Shown in pieces: positions 1 through 4,193 of a DNA stretch of 4,193 bases. Every line of letters begins with the position of its first letter. Position 1 is the stretch's first letter. Where the stretch lies: positions 1-4,193 of the IMG/VR virus record IMGVR_UViG_2675903417_000005; one strand, written 5' to 3'. The notes under the pieces are model-generated. The model saw only the letters and a list, made by a program, of their open reading frames with translations. It made no database searches and was not told where the DNA came from. A program made the translations under genes and the position numbers. The DNA is from a virus (Duplodnaviria > Heunggongvirae > Uroviricota > Caudoviricetes).

Positions 1-150
1 GGTCTGACGGCGCTTAGTGCTGAATTCACTATCGGCGAAGGTGAGTTGATGGCTCATGATGTCCCTCTGGGATGCGCTCCGGATGAATATGATGATCTCA
101 TATCAGGAACTTGTTCGCACCTTCCCTTACACACAGCGCAATGTTGTTAG
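1..150 (+). CDS. Possible 3' end of an upstream ORF (49 sense codons open to the window edge, stop TAG 148-150); product unknown
   Basis: Frame 1 is the only + frame open from position 1, and runs to TAG at 148-150. It is in the same orientation as the downstream coi/c1 pair. Chance openness of 49 codons is roughly 10%, so support is weak; no start codon or RBS is visible. Confidence 0.25.
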   Translation, partial: GLTALSAEFTIGEGELMAHDVPLGCAPDEYDDLISGTCSHLPLHTAQCC

Positions 151-229: not shown

Positions 230-439
230 ATGGCTTTCATTCAACCAACCATCGACGACGTTAGACATTGCTCTAACGCTTTATCTGTAGACCCTGCCGA
301 AACCGACGCTGCCCGCGCCATTGCTGAACACTACTCAAAGATATCCAATCAGGAGTACCGCATCACCCAAGACGACCTGGATGACCTCACTGACACAATC
401 GAATATCTCATGGCAACTAACCAGTTAGACTCACAATAA
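230..439 (+). CDS. coi: Coi-like C1-repressor inactivator (small acidic antirepressor), 69 aa
   Basis: ATG at 230 preceded by SD-like GTGAGG (217-222) with a 7-nt spacer; stop TAA 437-439. The protein is small and acidic (many D/E). Its length of 69 aa and position immediately upstream of, and co-oriented with, a 283-aa ORF match the P1 coi-c1 arrangement. Identity is by recall of family properties, not alignment. Confidence 0.75.
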   Translation: MAFIQPTIDDVRHCSNALSVDPAETDAARAIAEHYSKISNQEYRITQDDLDDLTDTIEYLMATNQLDSQ

Positions 440-482
440 ATGCACTAATAAATCTATTATTTTTGTTTGATCCCTCTATAAT
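439..482 (+). promoter_or_regulatory. C1-operator-like 17-mer (439-455, AATGCACTAATAAATCT) overlapping the -35 region of a putative sigma70 promoter (-10 TATAAT at 477-482) upstream of c1
   Basis: 439-455 matches the asymmetric P1 C1 operator consensus ATTGCTCTAATAAATTT at 14 of 17 positions, including a perfect CTAATAAAT core. A perfect TATAAT hexamer lies at 477-482, about 70 nt upstream of the c1 ATG; no good -35 is present, and the operator sits where the -35 would be. Confidence 0.5.
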
Positions 483-549
483 ATAGGTCAGTAATGACCG
501 GTTTTCTCAGCCGGGCGTTATTGACCATGTCAATTCTGGAGGAGGATCA

Positions 550-1401
550 ATGATAAATTATGTCTACGGCGAACAACTGTACCAGGAGTTCGTCAGCTTC
601 AGGGATCTCTTTCTAAAAAAAGCTGTTGCACGCGCCCAACACGTTGATACAGCCAGCGACGGTCGTCCTGTACGCCCGGTTGTCGTTCTACCGTTCAAAG
701 AAACTGACAGCATTCAGGCTGAAATTGATAAATGGACTTTAATGGCGCGGGAACTGGAACAGTACCCAGACCTCAATATCCCAAAGACTATTTTATATCC
801 AGTGCCTAACATCCTTCGCGGTGTTCGCAAGGTTACAACTTATCAGACAGAAGCTGTGAACAGCGTCAACATGACCGCTGGCCGCATTATTCATCTGATT
901 GATAAGGACATTCGCATCCAAAAAAGCGCGGGGATCAATGAGCACAGTGCGAAATACATAGAGAACCTGGAAGCAACAAAAGAGCTAATGAAGCAGTACC
1001 CAGAGGATGAAAAATTCCGTATGCGCGTACACGGCTTTAGCGAAACAATGCTGCGCGTCCACTACATTTCCAGTAGCCCTAACTACAATGATGGTAAATC
1101 AGTGAGTTACCATGTGCCACTGTGTGGCGTGTTTATCTGCGATGAAACTCTCCGTGATGGAATTATCATCAACGGTGAATTCGAAAAAGCAAAATTTAGC
1201 CTTTATGACTCCATAGAACCGATCATCTGCGACCGCTGGCCGCAAGCAAAAATATATCGCCTGGCAGATATTGAAAATGTAAAAAAACAAATTGCCATCA
1301 CTCGCGAAGAGAAAAAGGTCAAATCAGCCGCATCAGTTACGCGCAGCCGCAAAACTAAGAAGGGGCAGCCAGTAAACGACAACCCCGAAAGCGCGCAATA
1401 G
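550..1401 (+). CDS. c1: C1-like primary lysogeny repressor (P1-type), 283 aa
   Basis: 283-codon ORF with ATG at 550 preceded by a strong SD GGAGGAGG (538-545); stop TAG 1399-1401. The 283-aa length, its position downstream of a 69-aa coi-like ORF, the operator-like 17-mer just upstream, and convergence on pacB all fit P1 c1. No canonical nuclease or NTPase motifs were seen; the C-terminal tail is basic. Confidence 0.8.
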   Translation: MINYVYGEQLYQEFVSFRDLFLKKAVARAQHVDTASDGRPVRPVVVLPFKETDSIQAEIDKWTLMARELEQYPDLNIPKTILYPVPNILRGVRKVTTYQTEAVNSVNMTAGRIIHLIDKDIRIQKSAGINEHSAKYIENLEATKELMKQYPEDEKFRMRVHGFSETMLRVHYISSSPNYNDGKSVSYHVPLCGVFICDETLRDGIIINGEFEKAKFSLYDSIEPIICDRWPQAKIYRLADIENVKKQIAITREEKKVKSAASVTRSRKTKKGQPVNDNPESAQ

Positions 1402-2910: not shown

Positions 2911-3980
2911 TAATCATCATCCCCGTACAGTTTGCGGGTAACTTCTTCGTCTTCCTCCTCGTCTTCGTCCAGATCCTGTTCAAGCCATGCTTCGTTTGAT
3001 ATGCCTTCCGCATCGACATCACCATAACCACCTGTATCGACGATATCGGCAATTTCTTCTCTACGATGCTCAATCCACAATGCCGCATCAGCGCGGCGGC
3101 TGGCGGCCCGTTCTCGCGCGATTTTATCCAGATCTTCAAGTGATGGAGCGCCAGATGCTGTTTGGTTTTCCTCATCATCGGTATTGGTCTTAGGAGCACG
3201 CAGATCGGCTTTGATTTGCTCCAGCATCAGGGGCGGCACTTTTCCTCCATGCGCCTCGATGAATTCAGCCGCTTCCAGCACTGACCAGTTATTTTCACGC
3301 TTTCGTTCGTATGCCAGCTTAACAATGCCAGCTTGCCCCATAGATAAAGCGTGCTTTTCCGCCTCCCGGCTTTCTTTTCGATAGTTATTCCGGATGCTGT
3401 AAATGGTGTTGATCAGGCTGCTTATCTGCGCGGAACAGCTGTTTAGCATGCTCGCGATACGGTATTCAGGCGGAGTACCTTCATCATCGTCTTTTTGCTG
3501 ATCGCGCATTTCCTGCACCAGGCGAATACACGTATCCCTGGCGTTCTCCAGCATAAGGAGATGAGAAAGAGACTTTTCCAGAAGAGTGGTTTCCAGAACA
3601 TCGGCCCCGGACCGACGCAACATAGCGCGCGCGGCCTTCCGCGCTTCAACGTTATCTATCAGGTAATCGCCAGCTTCGAATTCAAAGCGTTCACCATCAT
3701 CATCCAGGGTGTCGCGTTCCAGGCGATCACGTAAGGTACGGTGGGCGCGGGTGATCACGTCATGATCATCAGAACGATCATTTATGCGCTTATTTTGGCG
3801 CTTAGCGTTCTCGACTGCGGCACTAACAACAGCATTAACTTTTTGTTTTTCAGCCATTTCAGCCACAACGTAATCACCTGCACGTTGATCATTAGCGTGA
3901 TCAATGATCATGCTTTTTAGTGGTTTCCTGACAGGCTTATTTGGCTTAGGGGTTTGAGGGCCAATGATGCAAAAAACCAC
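2910..3980 (-). CDS. pacA: Terminase small / pac-recognition subunit, PacA-like (start codon uncertain: GTG 3980, ATG 3911 or ATG 3857)
   Basis: Long ORF immediately upstream of, and translationally coupled to, the large terminase (stop TAA 2910-2912 overlapping the pacB ATG). The 5' coding region contains the 4+3 TGATC(A/G) hexamer cluster, consistent with the P1 pac site lying within pacA. The C-terminus is highly acidic ([11 protein letters not shown]). An in-frame TGA at 3996-3998 limits the N-terminus, and none of the three candidate starts has a strong SD. Confidence 0.72.
3724..3911. other. pac-like packaging initiation site: seven Dam-methylatable hexamers TGATC(A/G), four at 3724-3780 and three at 3886-3910, flanking a roughly 105-bp core
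   Basis: Hexamers on the pacA sense strand: TGATCG (3724-3729), TGATCA (3752-3757), TGATCA (3763-3768), TGATCG (3775-3780), then TGATCA at 3886-3891, 3898-3903 and 3905-3910. About 0.15 such hexamers are expected by chance in this span. The 4+3 arrangement and overall size match the described P1 pac site, whose cleavage depends on Dam methylation of these elements. Confidence 0.6.
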
Positions 3981-4088
3981 GCTAACAGCGTTAGTTCATT
4001 GTTTATATTGAAATTGATAGGTACTGCGTTTACAGCCACTTCAGTCGTCATGGTGGGGCTGAGGGACGGGTCCGCTTGGAAAAAGGAA

Positions 4089-4103
4089 ATTATCCTACTA
4101 TAA
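4089..4103 (-). promoter_or_regulatory. Candidate promoter for pacAB: -10-like GATAAT (minus strand, 4094..4089) abutting the 9-mer TTATAGTAG (minus strand, 4103..4095)
   Basis: On the minus strand, CCCTTATAGTAGGATAATTTCC gives a TANNNT-type -10 with no recognisable -35, which is what an activator-dependent (Lpa-type late) promoter would look like. The 9-mer recurs at 4179-4187. This is weak: 9-mer repeats are expected by chance in 4 kb, and I cannot recall the exact late-promoter consensus. Confidence 0.25.
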
Positions 4104-4119
4104 GGGCTTCCCCGAACAG

Positions 4120-4191
4120 TCAACGCCGGTTTTTAATTTCTGTCTGTTCATCAATGAAAGGCAAGGGATAAGACTGCGCTACTATAAACGG
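4120..4191 (-). CDS. Possible 3' end of an upstream minus-strand ORF (23 sense codons open to the window edge, stop TGA at 4120-4122); product unknown
   Basis: One minus-strand frame stays open from the window edge to TGA at 4122..4120 (translation ...PFIVAQSYPLPFIDEQTEIKNRR*). In P1-like genomes a gene lies upstream of pacA on the same strand. A stretch this short is open by chance about a third of the time. Confidence 0.2.
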   Translation of the reverse strand, partial: PFIVAQSYPLPFIDEQTEIKNRR

Positions 4192-4193
4192 TC

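Follow-up and report, generated by a model that had tools for sequence, protein, structure and literature searches.

The short interval between coi and c1 in a P1-like phage-plasmid raises the question of whether the C1 repressor limits its own level by binding at the promoter of its own gene. We examined the question in a single window (the whole stretch of DNA analysed, 4,193 nucleotides), which by its sequence is the immC-pac region of a P1-like phage-plasmid at approximately 96% identity to P1. Positions 126 to ~3951 aligned at 95-99% identity with the immC-pac regions of P1, P7, RCS47, SJ46, and phiW39, and the window is oriented as the reverse complement of the P1 record AF234172. Its gene content comprises imcB, coi, and c1, with pacB and a 5'-truncated pacA on the minus strand. 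The genes that frame the interval were located as follows.

230-439, plus strand: coi, the C1 inactivator, 69 aa, an open reading frame that aligns with the P1 coi annotation
538-545, plus strand: Shine-Dalgarno sequence of c1, GGAGGAGG, read from the sequence
550-1401, plus strand: c1, the C1 repressor, 283 aa, an open reading frame

The c1 product was identical to P1 C1.100 at 281 of 283 amino acids and scored 611.6 bits against the NCBIfam equivalog model NF041318 (phage_rep_C1; cut-off 500); the Pfam search assigned C1 to no family. We therefore read c1 as intact and full-length, with the cognate repressor encoded on the same element as the site under study. The GGAGGA of the c1 Shine-Dalgarno sequence was unchanged across the compared lineages.

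The candidate binding site lies immediately downstream of coi.

439-455, plus strand: C1 operator Oc1a (formerly Op99a), AATGCACTAATAAATCT, identical to the Oc1a annotated in P1

The consensus of the C1 operator is given as ATTGCTCTAATAAATTT in a 2021 mBio paper. A first-pass annotation, made from the letters alone, had described 439-455 as an operator-like 17-mer agreeing with this consensus at 14 of 17 positions, at a chance rate of about 0.01 per window, and starting on the last base of the coi stop codon. All three particulars were reproduced: AATGCACTAATAAATCT and ATTGCTCTAATAAATTT differ at three positions, dinucleotide shuffles give an expectation of 0.01 (two matches were seen), and the 17-mer begins at the last base of the coi TAA because the coi reading frame spans 230-439. 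The wording "operator-like" was right as to the kind of site but too cautious as to its identity. When compared with the annotated Op99 operators of P1, the 17-mer was base-for-base equal to Oc1a, the former Op99a, and is thus the known P1 operator itself as annotated in AF234172. In that record the same site is labelled "monovalent C1-controlled operator C1a" and forms part of Oc1ab, described as [quoted passage not shown]. Oc1ab in turn overlaps "sigma 70 promoter Pc1; corresponds to former P99a". At the same place the P7 record carries Op(c1a), with the statement that it "regulates expression of c1". Because the P1 and P7 annotations agree with the circuit set out in the mBio paper, the 17-mer was identified as the known c1 autoregulatory operator, and positions 439-455 were assigned on sequence grounds as its strong half.

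The quality of the site was then assessed against the 21 C1 operators annotated in P7, using a leave-one-out matrix built from the other 20. Among these 21 operators, T3, C5, C7, T8, A9, and A10 are invariant, and 439-455 retains all six. Its three mismatches to the consensus (A2, A6, and C16) are all at positions where accepted operators differ from one another. By leave-one-out it scored 21.0 bits, which ranks 10th of 21 and is the best in the window. The second of the two 14/17 matches, TTTGCTCGTATAAATTT at 2198-2214 on the plus strand in pacB (antisense), was rejected as an operator: it breaks T8 and A9, scores 11.9 bits, and is unannotated in P1. This pacB match is identical in P1 and P7; it probably arose by chance and is kept by coding constraint.

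The position of the operator relative to its promoter was resolved from the following elements.

453-458, plus strand: Pc1 (formerly P99a) -35 hexamer, TCTATT, transferred from the P1 annotation (P1 locus L001, 622-627)
477-482, plus strand: Pc1 -10 hexamer, TATAAT, read from the sequence and annotated in P1 (L001, 646-651)
439-466: counterpart of the bivalent operator Oc1ab as annotated in P1, 28 bp, two inverted 17-mers that overlap by 6 bp
450-466, minus strand: positional homologue of P1 Oc1b (formerly Op99b), the weak, inverted partner of Oc1a, placed from the P1 annotation (L001, 619-635)

Oc1a adjoins a sigma-70 promoter whose coordinates match those of P1 Pc1. It shares 3 bp with the -35, and 21 nt separate its end from the perfect TATAAT, which the first-pass annotation had correctly placed at 477-482. 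The same annotation had put the operator in the place of the -35; an overlap does exist, but it takes in only those 3 bp of the annotated hexamer, and the 17-mer does not sit on the -35. With the start site taken as ~489 from the position of the -10 (a literature search found no mapped P1 start sites), Oc1a would extend from about -50 to -34 and thus lie mostly upstream of the -35, which spans -36 to -31; Oc1b would cover -39 to -23 and the -10 would fall at -12 to -7. The spacer between the two hexamers is 18 nt, and the c1 start codon follows the -10 by 68 nt with no gene in between. Relative to P1, the window was 100% identical over 439-463, which takes in Oc1a, the -35, and most of Oc1b, and the -10 at 477-482 was also identical. 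TCTATT is a poor match to TTGACA and is the same in P1 and in the more distant JK004 and Salmonella lineages described below. A consensus promoter scan of positions 1-700 called no promoter, because the Pc1 -35 is poor, and this was not counted against a promoter annotated in P1. Two GATC (Dam) sites were also noted, one at 469-472 in the Pc1 spacer (~-20 to -17) and one at 545-548, between the Shine-Dalgarno sequence and the start codon of c1. P1 and JK004 share the spacer site; the Salmonella lineage and two IMG/VR loci (L172 type) lack it.

The partner site that covers the -35 and the spacer in the P1 annotation, Oc1b, had been missed by the first-pass annotation. Here it differs from P1 at one base (T464, a C in P1), with two further differences in the spacer. 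Oc1b agrees with the consensus at 10 of 17 positions and has a matrix score of -6.2 bits, and 34 equally good 17-mers were found in the window. From its sequence alone Oc1b is indistinguishable from background. The P7 record annotates only Op(c1a) at this place, as a monovalent site, and carries no Oc1b. Since neither the sequence nor the P7 annotation speaks for Oc1b, its assignment rests on the P1 annotation. A weak second half would suit a promoter built for throttling and not for full shut-off.

We sought to determine how far the site has been held constant. The 17-mer was identical and at the same offset in all 88 of the collected P1-like loci. Three diverged lineages were then compared, namely Cronobacter phage JK004, whose C1 is 77% identical, and two Salmonella plasmids. 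Their versions of the site (AATGCTCTAATAAATCT / AGTGCTCTAATAAATCT) conserve 15-16 of the 17 positions and again begin at the last base of the coi stop. TATAAT was invariant in all four lineages and always followed the operator by 21 nt. The 3' end of coi and the c1 leader were largely different in JK004 and the Salmonella plasmids, and the block that remained invariant across the lineages was TGCnCTAATAAATCTATTnTTTT ... ATCC ... TATAAT. The operator together with the promoter is therefore best described as a clean phylogenetic footprint, as judged from the alignment.

Such a footprint could in principle belong to the polymerase and not to the repressor. The conserved A/T-rich block would then be an RNA-polymerase element of Pc1, an UP element joined to a non-canonical -35, and its likeness to an operator would be incidental. 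Its location at -50 to -34 is the one expected of an UP element, and a promoter with so weak a -35 may need upstream A/T contacts. The letters that are conserved, however, are those of the invariant operator core TGCnCTAAT, including G and C positions that an UP element does not require; the site also scores mid-range among accepted operators, and in P1 this very sequence carries an annotation as a C1 binding site. We consider this explanation very improbable. A functionless chance match has still less in its favor. The existence of another 14/17 match in pacB, probably non-functional, shows that such matches can arise, but only 0.01 are expected per window, the 17-mer equals an annotated P1 operator base for base and does not vary in 88 loci, its position is kept where the flanks have diverged, and all of the invariant core positions are retained, unlike in the pacB match. 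A chance origin of 439-455 is excluded.

The search for relatives was also extended beyond these lineages. A scan of species-representative genomes for diverged relatives returned four near-identical loci only. A remote P1-like module was encountered on the Pantoea agglomerans plasmid NZ_CP134741 (L094, 832-5191), which has, in the P1 order, genes for a Cre-like recombinase, for a 360-aa protein with 22% identity to C1, and for terminase. In the 611-bp intergenic region upstream of its C1-like gene, no P1-type operator, repeat, or comparable layout was recognised. Synteny is kept on this plasmid, and with no upstream operator recognisable the C1 homologue was dropped from the comparison.

The repressor's own operator thus overlaps the promoter that transcribes the repressor gene c1, and the autoregulatory layout proposed by the first-pass annotation was supported, as the P1 annotation places the operator on Pc1 of c1 and the mBio paper states that C1 inhibits Pc1. 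According to the same 2021 paper, P1coi and Pc1 both drive the expression of C1, which in turn inhibits each of them by way of adjacent operators; C1 is inactivated by Coi, and the corepressor Lxc and the antirepressors Coi and Ant modulate binding. In the window, C1 produced from c1 (550-1401) would bind the asymmetric 17-mer Oc1a, and a second C1 would probably occupy the overlapping weak site Oc1b with help from Lxc. The bound C1 is predicted to mask the -35 (453-458), the A/T-rich stretch upstream of it, and some of the spacer, in a promoter with a weak -35 that would depend on its perfect -10 (477-482). RNA polymerase would then be excluded from Pc1, and C1 would limit its own synthesis. 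As in P1, the Lxc/Bof corepressor would strengthen C1 binding, and Coi or Ant would relieve repression.

We hold it to be very likely that Oc1a, with the weak Oc1b as Oc1ab over Pc1, mediates negative autoregulation of c1 by exclusion of RNA polymerase. The basis for this in the present element is the identity to the annotated P1 operator and promoter, the intact c1, the operator-grade sequence, and the conserved site and spacing; C1 binding, the second site, the start near 489, and repression itself are carried over from the P1 literature and annotation. C1 binds as a monomer. With no more than 3 bp of the -35 inside Oc1a, a single bound monomer may not be enough for simple occlusion.

This geometry is also the starting point for a different account, in which the operator is real and serves mainly as an anchor for C1 DNA looping with Oc1c, Oc1d, and Oc1e, or as a roadblock to read-through from P1coi, and Oc1a alone represses Pc1 only weakly. 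At P1coi in P1, the interval from the -35 to the -10 is taken up by the operator, whereas the strong site at Pc1 lies mostly upstream of the -35, and in P1 four more operators are found within the 560 bp upstream. C1-mediated looping has reportedly been found, in work dating from 1994, to contribute to c1 autoregulation. This account is compatible with polymerase exclusion at Pc1 and does not compete with it. The P1 annotation ties Oc1ab to the control of c1 at Pc1, and the mBio paper describes a direct inhibition of Pc1. The upstream part of the window bears on the matter as well.

1-125, minus strand: IS5 end (5' part of insH) in imcA; P1 homology starts at 126
267-283, plus strand: operator Oc1c (formerly Op99c) inside coi, ATTGCTCTAACGCTTTA, identical to P1 Oc1c (L001, 436-452)

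The IS5 insertion separates coi-c1 from the promoter P1coi and from the operators Oc1d and Oc1e. The same junction is present in phage RCS47, where it is annotated as insH IS5D and "imcA part 2", and the insertion was found in 3 of the 47 loci with the leader allele carried here. Because IS5 has removed Oc1d, Oc1e, and P1coi, long-range looping or a block to read-through cannot be the main function in this element, and we regard this account as unlikely. The same loss leaves Pc1/Oc1a and Oc1c (267-283) as the only visible control of c1, and it leaves coi without an annotated promoter. Oc1c matches the consensus at 12 of 17 positions, with a matrix score of 16.9 bits (11.1 bits by leave-one-out). 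It was noted that Oc1c falls within a 7-bp inverted repeat, CGTTAGA-cattgc-TCTAACG (259-278), which was flagged by the terminator scan and is identical in P1.

A second insertion bounds the window on its other side. P1 homology ends at ~3951, and positions 3952-4193 (242 bp) were 100% identical to the end of an IS110-family (IS5708-like) element that is present on hundreds of enterobacterial plasmids and is common on resistance plasmids. This insertion truncates pacA, so that the first ~40 codons and the upstream late promoter are gone. The junction between IS110 and pacA was encountered in no complete E. coli genome of the collection searched. Seven TGATCA/G hexamers are clustered at 3724-3910 inside pacA, at the position of the known P1 pac site, and this cluster is still present despite the truncation.

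Downstream of the -10, the window departs from P1 in the c1 leader, and a further feature was found there.

486-526, plus strand: 41-nt hairpin of the c1 leader, at or close to the start of the Pc1 transcript, from folding and covariation

The hairpin begins 4 nt after the -10. Over 483-524 about half of the bases differ from P1, and both flanks are identical, so that the leader forms a sharply delimited cassette of variable sequence and conserved structure; the hairpin alleles differ at ~20 of 41 nt. The folded leader (75 nt) reached -29.5 kcal/mol with z = -4.9, and the P1 allele gave the same shape with z = -5.9. The predicted fold of both alleles has a lower stem of 11-12 bp, one bulged base on each side, an upper stem of 5-6 bp, and a loop of 5 nt. 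When eight distinct variants were aligned, 93% of cells paired; five compensatory pairs distinguish the two alleles, and a sixth both-sides pair involves a bulge variant. None of the register shifts of this alignment paired comparably. In 119 further loci the single-base variants affect the loop, the bulge, or the ends of helices, or else create G-U pairs. Only two leader alleles were recorded among ~200 P1-like loci. For the allele in the window, the sense RNA folds at -23.0 kcal/mol versus -12.3 kcal/mol for the antisense. The leader sequence of the JK004 and Salmonella lineages is unrelated, yet a GC-rich hairpin is present there with weaker statistics. No Rfam family matched anywhere in the window.

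Taken together, these results suggest that the Pc1 transcript carries a genuine RNA structure at its 5' end. A role as an intrinsic terminator was rejected, since no U-tract follows the stem in the P1, JK004, or Salmonella alleles. A plausible role would be that of a 5' stabiliser or an RNase III/E site in the coi-c1 RNA. Whether this amounts to a functional RNA element, providing a second layer of c1 control (as stabiliser or RNase III/E site) through exchangeable alleles that keep their shape, is a tentative suggestion that we think rather less probable than its opposite. If true, the hairpin and Oc1a would be the only remaining control of the C1 level in the IS5-disrupted element. It was also noted that this leader allele contains a 19-codon open reading frame at 494-553 (MTGFLSRALLTMSILEEDQ followed by a stop) that runs through the hairpin and ends in ATGA over the c1 start codon. 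Only its last 8 codons are open in P1 and it is not conserved in JK004; this reading frame is probably meaningless.

These results demonstrate that the feature is already known: it is the Op99a/Oc1a operator that a P1-like element carries at Pc1. The first-pass annotation, made from sequence alone, had correctly recognised a classic regulatory site, and little biology is added by its rediscovery, because the model of P1 immunity has included autoregulation of c1 through Op99a and Pc1 from the late 1980s onward. The retention of the site and of its 21-nt spacing to the -10 despite a C1 of only ~77% identity marks it as an evolutionarily stable core of immC. P1-like plasmids are frequent carriers of resistance genes, and the loss of the upstream promoter and two operators to IS5 may bias such plasmids toward stable maintenance. 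Only the leader hairpin and the regulatory region trimmed by IS elements might merit a separate look.

The closest known system is the P1 operator Op99a,b (Oc1ab) at P99a (Pc1) in immC, with which the window shares an identical Oc1a, -35, and -10 and the same position relative to the coi stop, the -10, and the c1 start. It differs from P1 in carrying another allele of the leader at 483-524 and in the removal of the upstream P1coi, Oc1d, and Oc1e by IS5. In P7, Op(c1a) is the same 17-mer and is annotated as a regulator of c1, but the leader there is of the P1 type, unlike in this element. The bivalent ban operator of P1 and P7, Op72a,b (Op(ban[a])/Op(ban[b])), has the same architecture of inverted 17-mers with a 6-bp overlap in a 28-bp unit. 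Both of its halves are strong (17/17 and 15/17), whereas the second half at c1 matches at 10/17 and scores below background. The weak second half at c1 would fit a leaky, self-limiting promoter, and not a tightly shut lytic one. C1 is not known to regulate its own gene positively. A similar outline is seen for lambda cI at PRM, where the repressor site OR3 overlaps the repressor's own maintenance promoter and limits the repressor level. The protein and operator families of the two systems are nonetheless unrelated; the C1 operator is asymmetric, and C1 binding, unlike that of lambda cI, is modulated by a corepressor (Lxc) and by protein antirepressors (Coi and Ant).
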